Source of the DNA: a virus
Lineage: Duplodnaviria; Heunggongvirae; Uroviricota; Caudoviricetes
Length of the DNA: 38,250 bases
Strand: one strand, 5' to 3'
IMG/VR virus record: IMGVR_UViG_2687453297_000004
Shown: piece by piece, positions 2,231 to 12,274 of the stretch
Numbering within the stretch: the first letter of the stretch is position 1
Layout: every line of letters begins with the position of its first letter
Translations under genes and position numbers: made by a program
Notes under the pieces: generated by a model
Told to the model about the DNA's origin: nothing
The model's input: only the letters and a program-made list of their open reading frames with translations
Databases searched by the model: none

Positions 2231-2503
2231 TCAGTGTTTCCGGTCGACGGTGATGTTCAGGCCGCCTTCTGCAGTGGTTTCCACCCGGTACGGCACCTCG
2301 TGCTCTGCCGTGTGGGTGAGTGTGTTCATCAGTACCTGCAGGGCAGCCGCCTTTCCGTTGGTTGCCACAATGGCCTGAGCGGCCATGCTGATTAACGCCG
2401 TCAGGACGTGCTTCACATCGGTGAGGTCGCGGCATTCACACTCGTTGACATAGTGTTCAACAAGGGTTCGGGTGCGCTGTCGTGCTTCCTGTGGGGTAAT
2501 CAT
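2231..2503 (-). CDS. Hypothetical early protein
   Basis: 90-aa ORF; start overlaps the stop of the upstream zinc-ribbon ORF. Confidence 0.4.
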   Translation of the reverse strand: MITPQEARQRTRTLVEHYVNECECRDLTDVKHVLTALISMAAQAIVATNGKAAALQVLMNTLTHTAEHEVPYRVETTAEGGLNITVDRKH

Positions 2504-2694
2504 TGCGCGTCCTCCCTGTCAGGGCGGGAGAATTCCATGACGGGCACGTCCGCCGAAAAATGCTGGCTGCAGTACGGACAGACCAGGGTGACGCGTACCG
2601 CAGGGATGTGGTATTTACCGGACATCACGGCGATGGCGCTGTGAAAACGCAGGGCTGTTATATCCCTCTCGCACTGAATACATTTAAATATCAT
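2500..2694 (-). CDS. Small zinc-ribbon protein
   Basis: 64 aa with two CxxC pairs (CIQCERD ... CPYCSQHF); strong SD (AGAGGAGAA) upstream of the ATG on the minus strand. Confidence 0.45.
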   Translation of the reverse strand: MIFKCIQCERDITALRFHSAIAVMSGKYHIPAVRVTLVCPYCSQHFSADVPVMEFSRPDREDAQ

Positions 2695-2791
2695 AATTTA
2701 ATTCTCCTCTGTTTCCGGCGTGCAGAAGCCCACGGCGCTGACGCCGGAATAAAAAAGAAAATGTTTTTATTAAATAATTAACGTGGTGTGT

Positions 2792-3322
2792 TTACTGCAC
2801 ATCCTGCTCAAAAGGAATTATTGAAAAATCCTCAATGTCGCTTTTAATGGAAATACCGGGAATATTTTTCACGGCCTCTTTTTCATTCAGGATAGCGTCT
2901 TTATTTATTTCCTCTTTTACACGAATAAAGCGCTCAAGCCCCAGACGTCTCAGTAATTCAATAACATTATCCGCCCCACGGATACTGACTGATGGCGGAC
3001 GGTTTCGCCACTGCACCTCGCCGGTGGTGAGGTTAGCGAACTTCACCTTCCCGTTGCCGGTCAGTTCATCACGGTGCGCCTCACACCATGTCTGGATACC
3101 GGACTGCAGTTCGGCCATGCGTTTTTTCAGGCTCTCGGTGAGCGGGGCATAACGTGCAGTGATGTCGCCAATGGTGTCATTCATTTCTGTTTCAGCCCTG
3201 ACCAGTTCACGTTGCGCGTCACCAAGCAGTCTGATTCCCTCAATGACCTCTTCGCGTGTCCCCGGCACCCAGAGTGCTGCTGCGGCTTTGATACGTTTTG
3301 CCCCTTTTGTACTTTTTGCCAT
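2792..3322 (-). CDS. gam: Gam-like host-nuclease inhibitor / DNA-end binding protein
   Basis: 176 aa, similar in size and early-region position to Mu Gam; strong SD (AGGAGGAG) before the ATG. Confidence 0.65.
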   Translation of the reverse strand: MAKSTKGAKRIKAAAALWVPGTREEVIEGIRLLGDAQRELVRAETEMNDTIGDITARYAPLTESLKKRMAELQSGIQTWCEAHRDELTGNGKVKFANLTTGEVQWRNRPPSVSIRGADNVIELLRRLGLERFIRVKEEINKDAILNEKEAVKNIPGISIKSDIEDFSIIPFEQDVQ

Positions 3323-3349
3323 ATTTTATGACTCCTCCTGTTGTGCTGA

Positions 3350-3619
3350 TTACCACAAAGATTCCGGCCACACGACGCGACAGCCGTGCAGTTCGAAAAC
3401 GCCCTGACGGAAATGTCCCCTGTGGTCATGACCGGTATACAGATAACAGGCCTTTCCCTGCTCAAGCATGCGCATGCAATGCGCACTCCGGGAAACGCGG
3501 ATGACAGGTTTGTTACCCCTGATGGTGATGCTTTGTACATCCGTGTTCGTCGCCTTAAGCGCCATAATGGCTGACTGCACTTTGCTGATTTGCTGGTTGA
3601 TACCTGTGGTGGATTTCAT
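3350..3619 (-). CDS. Hypothetical early protein
   Basis: 89-aa ORF directly downstream of the MuB-like gene with a plausible SD. Confidence 0.4.
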   Translation of the reverse strand: MKSTTGINQQISKVQSAIMALKATNTDVQSITIRGNKPVIRVSRSAHCMRMLEQGKACYLYTGHDHRGHFRQGVFELHGCRVVWPESLW

Positions 3620-3621
3620 TA

Positions 3622-4827
3622 TTAAACCCCTTTGACAACGTCAGCGTTGACCTGTGGAACCCCGATTTCAGCGGCCAGATTCATGGCGGCTATTACCAGG
3701 TTACTGACGGCCAGCGGATACAGCAGGCTGACCATATTTTTACGATGACTTCCCGGATTGCTCAGGCGGGCACGTATGGCATCCACTGCGCTGGCGTCCA
3801 TAATGTCCGTCAGTTGTTTACCGGCCCGTTGCAGTTTGAACGTCAGAAACTCTTCAAGGTTATTGTCCAGAGGCAGAAGTTCGACCACCTCACAGCGCTG
3901 AACGACTTCACGGACTTCCATATTGCGTTCAGACAGTTTTGTCGCCAGTTCCGGCTGGCCAATCAGCACGATGGACAGCAGTTTTTTGAAACCGGACTCC
4001 AGCTCAAAAAAGCGTTTGAGGTGTTTCAGTGTCGGAATGGGCAGACTGTGGGCCTCCTCAATCACCAGAACGTGGCTGAACCCCGCCTGGCTGCTGTCTT
4101 TCAGGACGCGATGCAACTGGCGAAAGCGGGCGTCCTGACTGCGTCTGATGCTTTCCAGTGGTGCGATGGTACTGATAATGGCTTCGGCAATCGCTGCTGC
4201 CTTCAGGGTTTTCCCTTTCACATCGTTGTCTTCCATAGCGATGATGTATGGCTCGATAACAATTACCGGCGCATTCTCGCGGTTGATACGTTCAGTCAGG
4301 TCGCGGCGCAGCGTGGATTTACCCGCACCGGACTCACCGATGACGGCCATAAATCCACCATGACGGGCTGTCTGGTACAGCGCCTCACGCACATAGCGGA
4401 TGTCCGGGGTGGTGAACACATCATCAGAACCCTGCATGGCTTCGTCGGCGAACGGGTCACGGAAAAGACCAAACGCTTTTTTGGTTGCTGGAAATAACAC
4501 CTGTTTTTTGAGTAACATATTCTCTTCCTCACTGAGGCTCGTTTTATCTGTGGTACCCGCTGTACGGGGCGTGGCCGCGACCTGTACAGCATCAAAACTC
4601 TTCGTTGTATCAATCCCCTGACTTTCCAGCCAGGACGCAAGACGCCGGCGCACTTCTCCGGGGCGGGTGCGGGGCCACGCGTTATGATTCACAATCTGGG
4701 CCAGCGTGGCCTCAGAAACATCGACAGCTCTCGCCACCACCGCCTGTGAGATACGGGCCTCTTTCAGTTGCTGCTTCAGTACCAGCATGTTTTCCTCCTC
4801 AGTTGCCGTTAACAATGCTGATAACAC
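3622..4827 (-). CDS. MuB-like AAA+ transposition ATPase (target DNA activator)
   Basis: 401 aa; Walker A GESGAGKST; N-terminal HTH-like segment; lies immediately downstream of and overlapping the transposase gene, as B follows A in Mu. Confidence 0.75.
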   Translation of the reverse strand: MLSALLTATEEENMLVLKQQLKEARISQAVVARAVDVSEATLAQIVNHNAWPRTRPGEVRRRLASWLESQGIDTTKSFDAVQVAATPRTAGTTDKTSLSEEENMLLKKQVLFPATKKAFGLFRDPFADEAMQGSDDVFTTPDIRYVREALYQTARHGGFMAVIGESGAGKSTLRRDLTERINRENAPVIVIEPYIIAMEDNDVKGKTLKAAAIAEAIISTIAPLESIRRSQDARFRQLHRVLKDSSQAGFSHVLVIEEAHSLPIPTLKHLKRFFELESGFKKLLSIVLIGQPELATKLSERNMEVREVVQRCEVVELLPLDNNLEEFLTFKLQRAGKQLTDIMDASAVDAIRARLSNPGSHRKNMVSLLYPLAVSNLVIAAMNLAAEIGVPQVNADVVKGV

Positions 4828-7493: not shown

Positions 7494-7802
7494 TTATAAA
7501 CGACTACCTGAAATGACACGTTGGTTGATTTCGTTAATACGATCCTGCGCTCGTGCCATCTCGTTACTGTGAGCCATGGCGATCTGCAGTAACTGGATGC
7601 CCGGTGCAAAACGTCCATTCTCCAGTTTCAGGGCCAGCCCTTCTTCAATGAGGGTGTTGAGTGCCCGATTAATGTTTGCTGGTGACTCGTGCAGTGCTGC
7701 CGCCAGTTCACCGTTGGAGATACCGTTCAGAGCGTGGCCACGTAACGCCTTAAGAACACGCAAAATACGGGTACCTGCGCTTGATGTATTTGGTTTATTC
7801 AT
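7494..7802 (-). CDS. Putative winged-helix DNA-binding protein
   Basis: 102 aa; HTH-like segment ISNGELAAALHESPANINRALNTLIEEGLA; second gene of the early operon. Confidence 0.45.
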   Translation of the reverse strand: MNKPNTSSAGTRILRVLKALRGHALNGISNGELAAALHESPANINRALNTLIEEGLALKLENGRFAPGIQLLQIAMAHSNEMARAQDRINEINQRVISGSRL

Positions 7803-8023
7803 GACACCTCCTTAAGGATACCGGGGGTAACTTCTTTACCTATTGCAACCGATAGATCTCGCAAAATCCGATAAGTCAAACGACCACGTGGTAGTTCACT
7901 TTTACCAGCCCAGCGACTGACTGCCTGTGTGACTGTTCGTGGCTCATAGCCTGCGTTAAGCGCGAACTGGCGCAAGCTACTGCCTCGTTCAACTAGTCGT
8001 GCCCGAACTTGTTGTTTATTCAT
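7799..8023 (-). CDS. Ner/Nlp-like HTH early regulator
   Basis: 74 aa; first gene of the leftward early operon, divergent from the repressor; pattern SLRQFALNAGYEPRTVTQAVSRW resembles Ner/Nlp DNA-binding proteins. Confidence 0.5.
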   Translation of the reverse strand: MNKQQVRARLVERGSSLRQFALNAGYEPRTVTQAVSRWAGKSELPRGRLTYRILRDLSVAIGKEVTPGILKEVS

Positions 8024-8096
8024 ATGCGGATAGTTCCAGTTGGGTTATCATGTACTCAATATGAATAAATGTACTTATTCAAAATAAATAAATCAA
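8024..8096. promoter_or_regulatory. Divergent early/repressor promoter-operator region
   Basis: 73-bp AT-rich spacer between divergent ner-like and repressor genes; inverted repeat TGAATAA-N6-TTATTCA (8062..8081) and two direct ATGTACT copies (8050..8056, 8069..8075). Confidence 0.4.
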
Positions 8097-8528
8097 GTGG
8101 AATTACGCAAAATGAATAACAAAGATGTTAACGCTGTGCTTTCCCGGTTAATGTCACTATTCCAAGCAGAGAATGATAGTGAGTTGGCAAGAGCGCTTAA
8201 CGTCAATAGGCAGACACTTGCAAGTTGGAGGAAGCGTGATTCTGTGCCTTATGCAATTTGCATAAACATCGCAGAAGAAAAGGGGGTTTCTTTAGATTGG
8301 TTGCTAACAGGTAGAAAACAAGGTTTATCAAAAGAAGTAGACGTAACTCCGACGCAAGTGCAGTTTAGCCAAGCTGACCTTACTATGCTTGAGCTTTTAA
8401 AGCAGCTAGACCCCGAGGTTCGTAACGATCTTCTGCGAGGCGCTGCGGAAAAACAGCGAGTGATCGAGATGGAAAAACAACTGAAGGAATTATCCGCAAC
8501 GATTGAGCGGTTAAAAAATGTGGGTTAA
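8097..8528 (+). CDS. CI-type phage repressor (HTH)
   Basis: 143 aa (start could be GTG 8097 or ATG 8112, no obvious SD, possibly leaderless); LARALNVNRQTLASWRKRDSVPYAICINIAEEKGVSLDWLLTG matches the phage CI repressor HTH signature; divergent from the early operon. Confidence 0.7.
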   Translation: MELRKMNNKDVNAVLSRLMSLFQAENDSELARALNVNRQTLASWRKRDSVPYAICINIAEEKGVSLDWLLTGRKQGLSKEVDVTPTQVQFSQADLTMLELLKQLDPEVRNDLLRGAAEKQRVIEMEKQLKELSATIERLKNVG

Positions 8529-8650
8529 TCTATTCCCAATGAGAACAATTGACAAGGTTATCAAACCTCTTCGTTATATGCGCTGATTTAAACAGTAGGA
8601 TGTGCTGTTTGCACTAACCATCTGAACTTTCCGCGTTAAGGATTAATCGT

Positions 8651-9544
8651 ATGAGTGGTGATGTGAGAAATTATCGTATTGAGTTTCATCAGCTATCGTT
8701 TAAGGCCACAGATCAGCTGGCAAATCTCGGAGATGCTTTTCAATCTGTAATTGATAAACAGAGCCCTTCCTCTTCAAACCATGAGGGTTTTACTAGAGAA
8801 ATTTGGGGGTTGAAAAAACGCGCGGATGGTTCTTTTAGTGGAGAGTTGAGAAAATTTCGCAACTCGAACATTCCGGATAAAGGTGCACCAGGGAAACAGT
8901 CTACCCCTATTCCACTTGCCAAGGATGAAGGGATCATTGAGCGCAATTTCTTTGTATTCTATCCTCGAATCAATGTTATAGGTTGGCACTATAATCATAT
9001 GGCTTGTGGTATAAGCCGTTTTAGTGCATTTCTTTCAACTATCTTTGGTTCAAAGGTTAAGCCCGCACCTTTGCTGGAAAAAGATGCAATCGCTAGGCTT
9101 ATGAGAGGAGATGTCAAAATGAAAAAAATCCAGTTGACGATTCCTCGCCCCCGTAATCCTGAGTTTTACCCTGATACTGATTTCAGTCAAAAGACACTAC
9201 AACTGCTTGGTGATGCAGGTGCCGATACAATGCAAATTGTAATGGGGATTAATACTCGCCGTGGCGATAGTGATGGTAGGCTTAAGCAGAATATAAAATT
9301 TGCTATGCAAGAGTTAGTCGAGTTTGGGGCGAAAAAGGCTGTAATTGATGTGTTCGATGCTGATGGTGTTGTCCATCCTGTGGATTTGATTGCCGAGCGT
9401 ATTTCGTCCTATCAATCGGTAGTTACTGACGCTCGTTTCCCTCCAGCCGAAACCATGTACCGTCTAATCGATACTGCGTATGCTGAAAACCGGGAGAGTA
9501 TCAATGCATATATTGGAGAAGATGAACTCGGCCCTATTGCTTAG
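8651..9544 (+). CDS. Hypothetical 297-aa soluble protein; candidate RexA-like exclusion component
   Basis: SD AAGGA 9 nt upstream of the ATG; AT-rich composition compared with flanking prophage DNA; directly downstream of and co-oriented with the repressor; followed by an overlapping 4-TM protein gene. No motif recognised. Confidence 0.6.
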   Translation: MSGDVRNYRIEFHQLSFKATDQLANLGDAFQSVIDKQSPSSSNHEGFTREIWGLKKRADGSFSGELRKFRNSNIPDKGAPGKQSTPIPLAKDEGIIERNFFVFYPRINVIGWHYNHMACGISRFSAFLSTIFGSKVKPAPLLEKDAIARLMRGDVKMKKIQLTIPRPRNPEFYPDTDFSQKTLQLLGDAGADTMQIVMGINTRRGDSDGRLKQNIKFAMQELVEFGAKKAVIDVFDADGVVHPVDLIAERISSYQSVVTDARFPPAETMYRLIDTAYAENRESINAYIGEDELGPIA

Positions 9545-9941
9545 TTTATTGATTGGATGTGGGATTGGTTTTCTCTACTGGTTCAAGTTGCCCCATATGC
9601 CAGTAGCCGCAATCCCAAACTTCATGACTACATTGTCCAGTGTCTTTGCAACGTTGTTAGGTTTTATTATTACAGCAATTGCACTACTTGCATCATTGCT
9701 TGATAAACCGTTACTTAAAAACATGCAAAAAACCGGACATTACAAGCGTCTGATGACCGATGCATTCTACACTTGCTTAGTTTTGCTAGTGTTGGTGTTG
9801 ACATGTTTGATTGGGTTGATGCTGCAAAGTAAGCATCAAGAGATTGTAGCCGCTATCCTCATTGGGCTTGTTGTTATGTCTATGTTGTGTTTATTACAAA
9901 CAGGTAGGCGATTATTCAATATAATCAAAGTGATATCATAA
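9522..9941 (+). CDS. 139-aa four-TM membrane protein; candidate RexB-like partner
   Basis: Internal ATG at 9522 with GGAG upstream, overlapping the end of the preceding gene; four hydrophobic helices (SALLLSLLIGCGIGFLYWF, LSSVFATLLGFIITAIALLASLL, FYTCLVLLVLVLTCLIGLML, IVAAILIGLVVMSMLCLL). Confidence 0.55.
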   Translation: MNSALLLSLLIGCGIGFLYWFKLPHMPVAAIPNFMTTLSSVFATLLGFIITAIALLASLLDKPLLKNMQKTGHYKRLMTDAFYTCLVLLVLVLTCLIGLMLQSKHQEIVAAILIGLVVMSMLCLLQTGRRLFNIIKVIS

Positions 9942-9965
9942 CAATGCACCATCAGGTGCATTGTT
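9940..9965. terminator. Candidate bidirectional terminator hairpin between convergent genes
   Basis: Perfect 11-bp inverted repeat AACAATGCACC-ATCA-GGTGCATTGTT between the 4-TM gene (+) and the Dam gene (-); no clean U-tract, so it may be a processing or stability hairpin instead. Confidence 0.35.
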
Positions 9966-9993
9966 ATGCAAGACTACTTACCTCCTTCTGAGC

Positions 9994-10761
9994 CTACTCT
10001 AAATTACTTACAATAAGTTCGCGCCGTAGTGTTCCCTTTCCTGCAAGACTGTAGTTGACCTTCACACAGTGAATGTTCAGACCGTTAAAAACCTGCCGCA
10101 TTTCCGGGATATCGTTGACCGATATAATCATCTTTCCTCTGATGCAACGGGCCAGCTCTGCCAACCGCGAGTAGTTCCCTTCAGGAAAATCCACACCATA
10201 GCCTTCCGTACCCAGGTACGGTGGGTCGCAGTAGAACAGCGTGTGCGGACGGTCATAACGCTCAATGCACTGTTGCCAGTCCATGTGTTCTATCACCGTT
10301 CTGGAAAGTCGCAGGTGTGCCGCTGAGAGCTCTTCCTCAATACGCAGCAGGTTGAAGCGTGGCGGGGATGTGGTGGAGGTGCCGAAACTATGCTCTGCCA
10401 CCTTGCCACCAAACGCCTGCTTCTGGAGGTAGTAGAACCGTGCCGCACGCTGGATATCCGTCAGTGTTTCTTCCGGGGTGATCTGCAGCCATTTGTAGAT
10501 CTGACGGCTGACCAGCGCCCATTTGAACTGGCGGACAAATTCTTCCAGGTGATGCTTTACCACCCGGTACAGATTCACCAGTTCACCGTTGATATCATTG
10601 ATGACTTCGATCTTGCCGGGTGTCTTAAGAAAATAGAGCGCTGCTGCCCCACAAAACGGCTCCACATAACATTCATGCGCCGGAAACAGCGGCAGAATGT
10701 GTTTTGCAAGGCGGCGTTTGCCACCAATCCACGGCACGATGGGTAATGTCTGCATTTTCAT
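9994..10761 (-). CDS. Orphan DNA N6-adenine methyltransferase (Dam-like)
   Basis: Motif I-like PWIGGKRR and motif IV DPPY (FYCDPPYLGTEGYG); start taken at the internal ATG 10761 (MKMQTLPIVPWIGGK), although the ORF is open to 10851; no adjacent restriction endonuclease gene seen. Confidence 0.8.
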   Translation of the reverse strand: MKMQTLPIVPWIGGKRRLAKHILPLFPAHECYVEPFCGAAALYFLKTPGKIEVINDINGELVNLYRVVKHHLEEFVRQFKWALVSRQIYKWLQITPEETLTDIQRAARFYYLQKQAFGGKVAEHSFGTSTTSPPRFNLLRIEEELSAAHLRLSRTVIEHMDWQQCIERYDRPHTLFYCDPPYLGTEGYGVDFPEGNYSRLAELARCIRGKMIISVNDIPEMRQVFNGLNIHCVKVNYSLAGKGTLRRELIVSNLE

Positions 10762-10865
10762 AATCTGTAAGCCTTTTACAATTATTAAAAAATATGGCAG
10801 TCTGGTCAGGTCTCGCGAGACTGACTGAACCTTGGTCGGCTCACAGCGCATTCCTGTGGGGCGAT

Positions 10866-10951: not shown

Positions 10952-11167
10952 TTATCCGGGGCGATTTTCTGACCTTATCCGGTCCAGGGCATAAGTAATA
11001 CCTTCTGCAAAAACAGAAGTATCAAACTGCTTTTGTATTCCCTGAAAATGAAAAGCGGCACGACAGACACTCAGTTCTCCGCGGTATAACCGGATAATAT
11101 CTTCCAGAACATTGTTCACTGCTTCAGCACGGCGCTGATGTTCTGTTAACGTTAATCGGGGATTCAT
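10952..11167 (-). CDS. Hypothetical small protein (71 aa)
   Basis: Strong SD AAGGAG 7 nt upstream of the ATG on the minus strand; co-oriented with the Dam and NTPase genes. Confidence 0.45.
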   Translation of the reverse strand: MNPRLTLTEHQRRAEAVNNVLEDIIRLYRGELSVCRAAFHFQGIQKQFDTSVFAEGITYALDRIRSENRPG

Positions 11168-11570
11168 GATGCACTCCTTAAATGATGATTTTTATGTACT
11201 CACCGGCAAAATATTCTGCCGATTACTGAACACGCATCCGGCACCTCAGGTTTTGATTTATTCTGGTTTTTTCGATATCCCGGACCAGGTTGATCACGAC
11301 CAGAAAAAGTGCCGGTGTTTTATTGATACGCTGATATGGCTTCGGGATAACAGCTATATTCGTTACTCTCAGTTGCTGGCTGTGGGAGCGGCTGATGTCG
11401 TCCTCACGGAAAAAACGCTCTGTCTGCTCAATGCCATGCCGACCTTTCTGCAGCCCCGGCCCGTACCATTTAAAGAGTCACTTCTGGATGCAGTAAAAAC
11501 CGGTGAAAATGCAGTCATCGCTGAATGCGTATCCCGGATTATGCGTTACGTGTTTAATGAACGTAAGTGA
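11166..11570 (+). CDS. Hypothetical protein (134 aa), uncertain
   Basis: Long open frame exactly filling the gap between two minus-strand genes; weak SD; its start codon overlaps the divergent start of the 71-aa ORF, so only one of the two may be real. Confidence 0.3.
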   Translation: MMHSLNDDFYVLTGKIFCRLLNTHPAPQVLIYSGFFDIPDQVDHDQKKCRCFIDTLIWLRDNSYIRYSQLLAVGAADVVLTEKTLCLLNAMPTFLQPRPVPFKESLLDAVKTGENAVIAECVSRIMRYVFNERK

Positions 11571-12274
11571 GGTTTATCCGCTGTCTGCATAATCCCGATA
11601 GCCAGTGCGAGGGGAAGTAATTCCGGGGAAACTCTTTCAAACAGCGATGCCCATTCTCCTCTCGCCATCACTCTGTCCAGCCCGCCCCCCAACTGCATTT
11701 CAGCAATCTTCCTGATTTCCCGGAACAACGCCGCTTTGATCTCTTCATGCTCAGCTTTATTTTCCGGTGTCAGAAGGTATTCGTCGAAGAACCGGGGAGG
11801 CTGGTTAATCGGGATGTGTTCCTGTTTGCCGTACTTCGGAGACGAACAACATTCTGTTGGCTGACCGGTGAGTTTACGTAACTCCTTCATGAGCAGCTCC
11901 TGATCGTAAACTGTCATCAGTGCCGCAATGGTGGCATGCAGTGCATCGGGCAGTATCCAGGGTTGCCGGCCCGTGGGGCATATAACATCCAGCAGCTCAT
12001 TCGTCCGACAGATACGCTCCTCGCCGTATGACAACAGGCCCTGTCCCGTGTATTCCTCCAGCCTGATCACTGTGCCACCCCGTGGCTTCTGCCAGGTCGT
12101 CAGATCTTCGCCATTCATACGGCGCTCATTCTCCACGTCAGCAGCATCGACAATGACGCTGTTTCCGAGTTCCTGTTTCACCATCTCTTCTATCCGCGCC
12201 AGTACGTAACTTTTACCGCTGCCCACAGGACCGGACACAGTGACAGTGATGACCGGATTCAGTGTGTGCGTCAT
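11546..12274 (-). CDS. P-loop NTPase of unknown function
   Basis: 242 aa; Walker A GPVGSGKSY near the N-terminus and Walker B-like VIVDAADVE; strong SD GAGGAG upstream; divergent from the late operon. Confidence 0.6.
   Translation of the reverse strand: MTHTLNPVITVTVSGPVGSGKSYVLARIEEMVKQELGNSVIVDAADVENERRMNGEDLTTWQKPRGGTVIRLEEYTGQGLLSYGEERICRTNELLDVICPTGRQPWILPDALHATIAALMTVYDQELLMKELRKLTGQPTECCSSPKYGKQEHIPINQPPRFFDEYLLTPENKAEHEEIKAALFREIRKIAEMQLGGGLDRVMARGEWASLFERVSPELLPLALAIGIMQTADKPHLRSLNT

Follow-up and report, generated by a model that had tools for sequence, protein, structure and literature searches.

A Rex-type phage-exclusion module proposed for two overlapping genes behind the repressor of a BcepMu-like prophage of Escherichia coli

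The 38,250-nucleotide stretch of DNA considered here (the window, IMG/VR record IMGVR_UViG_2687453297_000004) is, over its whole length (1-38250), a BcepMu-type transposable prophage of Escherichia coli with its early operon inverted relative to Mu, and directly downstream of its CI-type repressor gene lie two overlapping genes, both labeled "hypothetical protein" in RefSeq. What might these two genes, one for a 297-aa soluble protein and the other for a small membrane protein with four predicted helices, be doing in a lysogen? We argue, by analogy with characterized systems and with a confidence of about 65%, that they form a Rex-type two-gene module for phage exclusion (that is, an abortive-infection-like system) that a BcepMu-like prophage carries as lysogen-expressed cargo. 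RexAB of phage lambda is the oldest known abortive-infection system, and to our knowledge, the mechanism of its activation is still unsolved.

The Gene Pair

The features at the center of the argument are as follows.

8112-8528, + strand: CI-type prophage repressor gene, 138 aa, from the ATG at 8112 (the RefSeq start; the list of open reading frames (ORFs) opens at GTG 8097)
8529-8650, + strand: spacer between the repressor gene and the rexA-like gene, with a Shine-Dalgarno sequence AAGGA at 8638-8642 and no unusual structure (fold z-score -0.57)
8651-9544, + strand: rexA-like gene with an ATG start, for a 297-aa soluble DUF6731-family protein with a predicted RexA/RdgC fold
9504-9941, + strand: rexB-like gene, for a 145-aa four-helix membrane protein; it overlaps the rexA-like gene by 41 nt, and an alternative start at 9522 would give 139 aa

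An initial annotation of this DNA had described two overlapping + strand ORFs after a co-oriented repressor, and both are there: the first runs from 8651 to 9544, and the second ends at 9941. Where the second begins is less plain. Candidate starts lie at 9480, 9504 and 9522 (for 153, 145 and 139 aa), and the calls differ: RefSeq/PGAP chooses 9522, the majority of metagenome callers choose 9504, and the longest ORF opens at 9480. The initial annotation had settled on 9522, in agreement with RefSeq/PGAP, but the comparative evidence favors 9504: the Met encoded there is the invariant first column of an alignment that reaches down to 33% identity, the distant homologues in that alignment have no Met at the position equivalent to 9522, and a GGAG lies 7 nt upstream of 9504 and only 3 nt upstream of 9522. 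Position 9504 is, thus, the more likely true start, and with it the overlap between the genes would be 41 nt rather than 23 nt.

Both genes are under purifying selection and are, therefore, real genes: against a 94%-identical homologue, the ratio of nonsynonymous to synonymous substitution rates (dN/dS) is 0.09 for the 297-aa gene and 0.04 for the membrane gene. The idea that they are chance ORFs is ruled out by these values together with conservation down to 27% identity.

A Large Family with a Predicted RexA-Like Fold

The 297-aa protein itself has no match in Pfam, NCBIfam or PADLOC; it matches phrog_7651 (E 1.5e-19), a group of unknown function. Its relatives say more. It is 73-76% identical to two proteins (P0004 and P0005) and 40-47% identical to a further set (P0007-P0017); its homologues over this range (40-76% identity) carry the annotation DUF6731 (PF20505), and 44 of the 48 aligned family members match the PF20505 model. 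By direct sequence homology, then, the protein belongs to DUF6731 (PF20505), although on its own it lies below Pfam detection. The family is large: its profile finds 1,541 clusters (at 50% identity) at E<=1e-3, 617 of them reaching 1e-10, and the best-scoring 150 matches are mostly 280-310 aa long. PF20505, PHROG 7651 and PHROG 8552 (to which the membrane protein belongs) are uncharacterized bins with neither a function nor a link to Rex, our literature search found DUF6731 mentioned in no paper, and literature searches for the RefSeq accessions and for KwaB with RdgC returned nothing relevant. To call the system undescribed, as the initial annotation tentatively did, is fair for the sequence family and too strong for the kind of system, given that five Rex-like systems have been described (PMC12894663).

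Other sequence searches add little. In the 297-aa protein, we found no Pfam domain besides the DUF and no sign of an enzymatic toxin. A profile hidden Markov model (HMM) search of the sequences in the Protein Data Bank (PDB) gave nothing significant (the best hit being eIF2-alpha at E 0.5), and RexA is, therefore, out of HMMER's reach. DUF4747 (PF15931), a domain reported in lambda RexA, Sbash gp30 and CarolAnn gp44 (PMC6426596, PMC6426606), is matched by 2 of the 48 relatives at a sub-threshold level (E 0.028-0.042; 13.7-14.3 bits against a cut-off of 27); these matches are collinear (101-238 with 95-235), and the window protein has none.

It is the predicted structure that points to RexA. 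The AlphaFold2 (AF2) model of the 297-aa protein, with a mean predicted local distance difference test score (pLDDT) of 81.7 and a predicted template modeling score (pTM) of 0.75, shows seven strands between residues 4 and 140, then an alpha/beta insertion spanning 156-245 and, toward the C terminus, helices covering 266-288. RexA, as published, is built from a split globular domain (1-139 plus 248-279) with a seven-stranded antiparallel sheet, an inserted alpha/beta dimerization domain (143-234) and a helix at the C terminus by which the chain rejoins the globular domain. The order of domains in the model is, thus, the same as that of the split globular domain and inserted dimerization domain of RexA, and at the level of a predicted model the window protein has the RexA fold, with 12-14% identity to RexA in the structural alignment. 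A fold search of the BFVD with the same model returns unnamed phage proteins and RdgC-like proteins and no named RexA; the RdgC-like matches are coherent with the rest, RdgC having been published as the structural relative of RexA (PMC11077077). Weak signals at the level of sequence, namely the collinear hhalign alignment of residues 88-152 with RexA 80-147 (E 0.003), that of 88-257 with 81-238 and the sub-threshold DUF4747 matches, lean in the same direction. Conserved basic residues (R49, R67-K68-F69-R70, R149, K158, R166, R203-R204, K216 and R250) are spread along the protein, which by analogy with RexA, a homodimer with non-specific DNA binding, is probably a dimer that binds DNA.

An Obligatory Membrane Partner

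As the initial annotation had said of a four-transmembrane (TM) protein, a Kyte-Doolittle scan finds four hydrophobic segments in the second protein. Its AF2 model is poor (pLDDT 58) and consists of four long helices with a short helix in the central loop; in sequence, the protein matches phrog_8552 (E 3.8e-7). The best-conserved part is not a helix but the loop between helices 2 and 3, with the consensus D-x2-L-x2-NM-x-KTGHY-x2-L in a 13-sequence alignment, and the core (K/R)TGH is present in all 29 partners that we collected. Basic residues are abundant in this central loop and in a C-terminal GRR, so that by the positive-inside rule the loop and both termini are predicted to be cytoplasmic. 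The same topology has been reported for RexB-like proteins, one of which, Sbash gp31, depends on its central cytoplasmic loop for defense (PMC6426596).

How regular is the pairing? We examined 29 DUF6731 loci, 23 from IMG/VR (27-100% identity) and six from genome and metagenome assemblies, and at every one of them the DUF6731 gene is followed on its strand by an overlapping gene for a multi-TM protein of 142-157 aa. The overlaps as listed range from 17 to 143 nt, the largest stemming from upstream alternative starts, and the commonest figure to emerge is 38 nt (15 of 29 loci). Over 18 loci, the divergences of the two proteins correlate pairwise with r 0.96, which fits inheritance as a unit, a correlation that adjacency and shared phylogeny alone would also give. 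In one Scandinavium genome, the partner ORF (L002:6848-7282) is wholly unannotated.

A Cassette That Recurs at Cargo Sites

In the window, the pair comes straight after a CI-type repressor gene and in the same orientation, and the likeness to lambda cI-rexA-rexB that the initial annotation had drawn from this arrangement is supported by its recurrence behind CI-like repressors in unrelated Pseudomonas prophages. In two lambdoid prophages of Pseudomonas putida (L009 and L010), a repressor with HTH_3 and Peptidase_S24 domains is followed by one 85-aa gene and then by the pair; in another prophage (L030), the pair again stands behind an HTH_3 plus Peptidase_S24 repressor, with a Cro-like gene divergent from that repressor; and in two more (L018 and L031), it stands behind XRE-type repressors with one or two genes between. 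In the Pseudomonas aeruginosa phage AUS531phi (L041; MN585195.1, 3501-4785), a DUF6731 gene (28% identity) lies directly behind a 285-aa Cro/CI regulator, and the gene downstream of it is annotated at just 118 aa. AUS531phi is the sole full-length tblastn match in a collection of 50,697 phage records, where one Vibrio phage record was matched weakly (over 55% of the protein only, E 5e-5), and it could be an experimentally tractable model. All told, the window and four independent prophage types have the pair next to a repressor gene and in its orientation.

Other prophages hold the pair elsewhere. In lambdoid prophages of Scandinavium, Pantoea and others, it lies antisense between the antiterminator gene Q and the lysis cassette, and in a transposable prophage of Pseudomonas moorei, it lies between the early and late regions, as it does in the window. 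Judged by these sequence comparisons, the two genes form a mobile cassette, which unrelated prophages carry at sites typical of lysogen-expressed cargo.

The lambdoid prophages with the pair at the Q/lysis site also have a recurrent neighbor, a zinc-ribbon-like ORF of 81-110 aa that immediately precedes the DUF6731 gene and is encoded on the other strand, with the motif CxxC...CPKCSADAGxHVFY...WCxxC.

L022:4531-4863, L023:3041-3286, L025:4530-4817 and L033:4531-4863, all - strand: zinc-ribbon-like ORF

Within E. coli itself, the cargo character of the locus can be read from what surrounds it.

8060-10037, no strand: variable low-GC cargo slot (immunity-region allele plus two-gene module), defined by homology breakpoints and GC content

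Of 5,426 complete E. coli genomes, 635 have a related prophage (EC958 and other ST131 strains among them), with immunity regions that differ; only 23 of the 635 carry the gene pair, and chromosomal DNA 100% identical to the 2-kb segment that surrounds the pair is present in 23 complete genomes of E. coli. When the window is aligned with two related prophages (L013 and L014), homology ends at 7802/8060 and resumes at 10037/10070, the right-hand breakpoint falling within the 3' end of a Dam-like methylase gene. These breakpoints coincide with a low-GC island: from 8030 to 9990, GC content is 0.412 vs. 0.552 for the remainder of the window, and this is the minimum among all segments of 1961 nt (mean 0.546, SD 0.039). 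In the ST131-type relative (L013), the slot is empty and the methylase follows directly after the repressor. The initial annotation had seen the AT-rich island and had supposed a horizontally acquired moron; the island is real, and the idea of a moron is supported, as the slot at about 8060-10037 is variable, empty in this relative and filled with other cargo in another strain. That other cargo (L014; NZ_OZ546956.1, E. coli AHB24, 2491-4706, equivalent to about 8550-10000 of the window) is a different two-gene set behind the repressor: a 335-aa homologue of the NA37 nucleoid-associated protein (PF04245, E 1e-80), followed by a 401-aa protein with a weak match, in its C-terminal part, to KwaA, the membrane protein of Kiwa (PADLOC, E 8e-5). 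Since it too pairs a DNA-binding protein with a membrane protein, modules of this sort may have a hotspot in the slot. The place next to the repressor in this BcepMu-like prophage family (635 of 5,426 E. coli genomes) would, on this reading, be a cargo site for them.

Transcription Signals

If the pair is cargo of the lysogen, it should be transcribed there, and by analogy with known Rex loci it is plausible that it is transcribed together with the repressor. A terminator scan of 7700-10200 found no site at all and hence none between the repressor and the pair. At the far end of the module lies one conspicuous structure.

9937-9968, no strand: perfect 14-bp hairpin that starts with the TAA stop and separates the membrane gene from the dam-like methylase gene convergent with it

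As RNA, it folds with -21.5 kcal/mol (z -5.6), and none of 200 shuffles folds as well. The scan missed it because it lacks a T run, and to judge by its sequence and place, it is possibly a bidirectional terminator or a stabilizer.

Neighboring Genes

The features of the immunity region upstream of the repressor gene are these.

7799-8023, - strand: Ner/Cro-like 74-aa helix-turn-helix (HTH) gene, divergent from the repressor gene and first gene of the leftward early operon (from the ORF list)
8053-8121, no strand: three operator-like 18-nt direct repeats, TAYTCAAWATRAATAAAT, starting at 8053, 8076 and 8104, in the divergent control region

The Ner/Cro-like protein has a weak winged-HTH match (PF13693, E 0.007), and its gene is kept in three related prophages (L013, L014 and L016). 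The repressor is matched by PF07022 (Phage_CI_repr, E 1.2e-17) and by PHROG families of transcriptional repressors, and its homologue in L016 begins at a Met equivalent to 8112. Between these two genes, a repeat search found the three repeats, 78-100% identical, spaced by 23 and 28 nt and overlapping an imperfect inverted repeat; from their sequence and position, they are likely the operators of the immunity switch.

In one of the 23 genomes that hold the identical segment (L001), RefSeq lays out Mor, gp16, Gam, an ExeA-like ATPase and a DDE transposase leftward from the immunity region and the head and lysis genes rightward. In strain S21EC, the prophage insertion adjoins yaaU/fixX. On the right, and running toward the module, is the Dam-like N6-adenine methyltransferase gene (9994-10851, - strand; PADLOC MTase_II, E 1e-112; PF02086, E 1e-29), which, with no restriction partner evident, looks like an orphan phage methylase. 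Between it and the lysis cassette are three small genes of unknown function on alternating strands.

10952-12274: three small genes, for 71 aa (- strand), 134 aa (+ strand, phrog_2266) and 242 aa (- strand, phrog_3787, with weak P-loop/AAA hints)

These three are kept in the ST131-type relative and so are not part of the variable cargo. The prophage's own holin/SLT lysis cassette follows from 12357 onward.

Discussion

A Proposed Mechanism. Taken as they stand, the data directly support the two genes, their overlap, a RexA-like fold (as predicted), the strict pairing and the recurrent repressor-adjacent or moron position. A RexA fold, an obligatory four-helix partner and a lysogen-expressed site together lead us to propose a Rex-type mechanism, in which the module would work like RexAB and the 297-aa protein would be, on the strength of its model, a structural homologue of RexA. 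The steps that follow (expression, sensing, interaction of the two proteins, membrane damage and phage exclusion) are ones that we infer from lambda RexAB, Sbash gp30/31, CarolAnn gp44/43 and RexABpp.

In such a scheme, the lysogen would transcribe the pair along with the repressor gene or immediately downstream of it, and coupled translation across the 41-nt overlap would hold the two proteins at a fixed ratio, a ratio that is critical for lambda Rex and for RexABpp (PMC12894663). The 297-aa protein, probably as a DNA-binding dimer, would serve as the cytosolic sensor of an infecting phage, and its trigger might be replication or recombination intermediates or perhaps, a phage protein. Once activated, it would engage the conserved basic cytoplasmic loop (KTGHY) of the membrane protein, which would oligomerize or open and leave the membrane depolarized or leaky; growth would stop, and the superinfecting phage would be aborted.

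What Speaks Against It. Several observations weigh against a Rex-type module, and we gather them here. The RexA models (Pfam PF15969 and PADLOC PDLC02339) do not match the 297-aa protein, nor do they match any of 48 DUF6731 family members even at E<=10, and these models do find lambda RexA, at 1e-96 (Pfam) and 1e-108 (PADLOC). Profile-profile comparison by hhalign, with the 48- and 181-sequence family profiles as queries and either lambda RexA alone or a four-sequence RexA alignment from phage records as targets, gives alignments of DUF6731 with RexA that are collinear yet non-significant (probabilities 1.7-10%): residues 88-152 align with RexA 80-147 (E 0.003, probability 10%), and with the 181-sequence profile, 88-257 align with RexA 81-238 (probability 1.7%). 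Given such probabilities, the kinship of the 297-aa protein to RexA rests on predicted structure, and there the inserted domain (156-245) is of low confidence (pLDDT 53-78), as might be expected of a domain that is stabilized only in a dimer.

The membrane protein fares no better by sequence. The RexB models (Pfam PF15968 and PADLOC PDLC02340), which find lambda RexB at 8e-92 and 9e-61, match neither the window protein nor 13 of its counterparts, and hhalign with RexB gives probabilities of 1.4-3.4%, collinear over TM2-loop-TM3 (24-109 with 25-116), so that its likeness to RexB is architectural only. Of the comparison with RexA and RexB in the initial annotation, the first half has, thus, gained a predicted fold, and the second is undemonstrated as homology (hhalign 1-3%). 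A promoter scan found no sigma-70-like consensus promoter on the + strand, and with that scan and the terminator scan both empty, co-transcription with the repressor is something that we can do no more than infer. Our literature search turned up no phenotype for any DUF6731 member. Moreover, the RdgC/RexA fold has non-defense roles as well, in the control of recombination and in modulation of the lambda switch.

Other Readings of the Same Pair. Could the roles be reversed? The soluble protein might be the toxic or antiviral effector and the membrane protein the partner that sequesters and silences it until infection, and such a variant exists in Butters gp30/gp31 (PMC12894663). Strict pairing, gene overlap and co-evolution would suit a toxin/anti-toxin-like pair equally well, and a cytoplasmic loop as the best-conserved part of the membrane protein would suit a docking site. 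We consider this arrangement improbable for the window pair: of the four systems described besides Butters (lambda, Sbash, CarolAnn and RexABpp), three have the membrane protein as effector (PMC12894663), and the 297-aa sequence, with no Pfam domain but the DUF, gives no hint of an enzymatic toxin.

A role mainly in the prophage's own lysis-lysogeny switch, in which binding to DNA and to the repressor would lock in the lytic state and there would be little or no exclusion, strikes us as just as unlikely. It has precedent, in that lambda RexA biases the bistable switch without RexB and its DNA binding tracks the switch, not exclusion (PMC11077077), and in several prophages the module does travel with the immunity region, directly behind the repressor. 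Yet many members have no repressor nearby and are found, in antisense orientation, between Q and the lysis genes, a placement with which such a role is hard to reconcile; the partner is kept at 29 of 29 loci, although the switch function in lambda needs no RexB; and most related E. coli prophages lack the module, which is, thus, dispensable for their switch.

A shade less probable again is an accessory role in DNA metabolism, with an RdgC-like protein, tethered to the membrane by its partner, that modulates recombination or transposition of a Mu-type phage. RdgC and kinetochore DNA-binding proteins share the fold, the BFVD matches include a "recombination-associated protein," and the element is a transposable phage; the same fold and the same partner are what we read as a Rex-type sensor and its effector. 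Least probable of all is superinfection exclusion at the envelope, or a holin-like part in lysis, by the membrane protein with the soluble one as accessory, for although the second protein is small and multi-pass, the pair adjoins the lysis cassette in some lambdoid prophages and 3 of 13 partners have a very weak match to a holin family (E 0.05), in those lambdoid prophages the pair is on the strand opposite to the lysis genes, the window prophage has a separate holin/SLT cassette of its own (from 12357)—grounds on which we reject the holin or lysis version—and an obligatory cytosolic partner with a RexA fold is no feature of known superinfection exclusion (Sie) or holin systems.

Relation to Known Systems. 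We return, then, to the Rex-type exclusion module, which lambda resembles most closely. In both, a repressor gene is followed, in the same orientation, by a gene for a soluble protein of about 280-300 aa and one for a four-helix membrane protein of about 144 aa; the soluble protein of the window has, in its predicted model, the fold and domain order of RexA (PDB 8TWQ), and the membrane protein has the size, helix number and basic central loop of RexB. The differences are also clear. The window proteins stand outside the RexA and RexB sequence families, the genes overlap by 41 nt where lambda rexA and rexB are separated by a 15-nt gap, and the host element is a transposable BcepMu-like phage. 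Strict RexA is rare (19 phage records), whereas DUF6731 is large.

The actinobacteriophage pairs Sbash gp30/gp31, CarolAnn gp44/gp43 and Butters gp30/gp31 likewise consist of a RexA-like soluble protein and a four-TM protein from the neighboring gene, and they are expressed in lysogens, the CarolAnn pair together with the repressor (PMC6426606). They differ from the window pair in that their hosts belong to a different phylum, their gene order is inverted in some cases, their sequence link to DUF6731 is sub-threshold (DUF4747, 2 of 48 members, E about 0.03) and in Butters, the soluble protein serves as the effector. RexABpp of the P. putida prophage P1 (PP_5643/PP_5644; PMC12894663) may be a separate branch. 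From the published primers, among which P1del5643 gives GTG as the native start codon of PP_5643 (PMC12894663), we deduced the protein termini (..HRTATFV.. and ..NKQSRLMV for the first; ..LIGQLANP.. and ..LYYLGYKLQE for the second), and these match none of 210 retrieved proteins; primer-derived 20-22-mers of PP_5643 found no match in the searchable sequence collections.

Kiwa is also a two-gene defense system, made up of the small multi-TM KwaA and the soluble, DNA-binding KwaB of about 300 aa, with the opposite gene order and from a different family. That the window pair might itself be Kiwa we rejected, as the PADLOC KwaA and KwaB models match neither protein at E<=1 and the gene order is reversed.

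What the Finding Would Mean. The novelty here is that a large family without annotation becomes tied to the Rex fold; systems of this kind, and the logic by which they work, were known before, and the conceptual advance is limited for that reason. The value lies in a testable assignment and in an expansion of the Rex superfamily.

One may be bolder, in a suggestion that we offer as tentative and think rather more doubtful than probable: DUF6731 with its KTGH-loop partner might be the largest, and an unrecognized, branch of the Rex superfamily, part with Kiwa of a general class of sensor and effector pairs, with the loop as the contact between RexA and RexB. If that were true, a branch of about 1,500 clusters would extend across prophages of Enterobacterales, Pseudomonas and beyond, unseen by current defense-finder models; the NA37/KwaA-like cargo of E. 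coli AHB24 and Kiwa would point to a defense class that joins an RdgC/RexA-like DNA-binding sensor to a small membrane effector; and the conserved cytoplasmic loop would be the long-sought site at which RexA meets RexB.

Short of this, the proposal gives a testable function to a family of some 1,500 clusters (at 50% identity) whose function Pfam gives as unknown (PF20505) and to which no PADLOC v2 model corresponds, and it brings to the study of Rex systems many natural variants for comparative work on the interface between the two proteins, with the invariant KTGHY loop and the obligatory gene overlap as handles.

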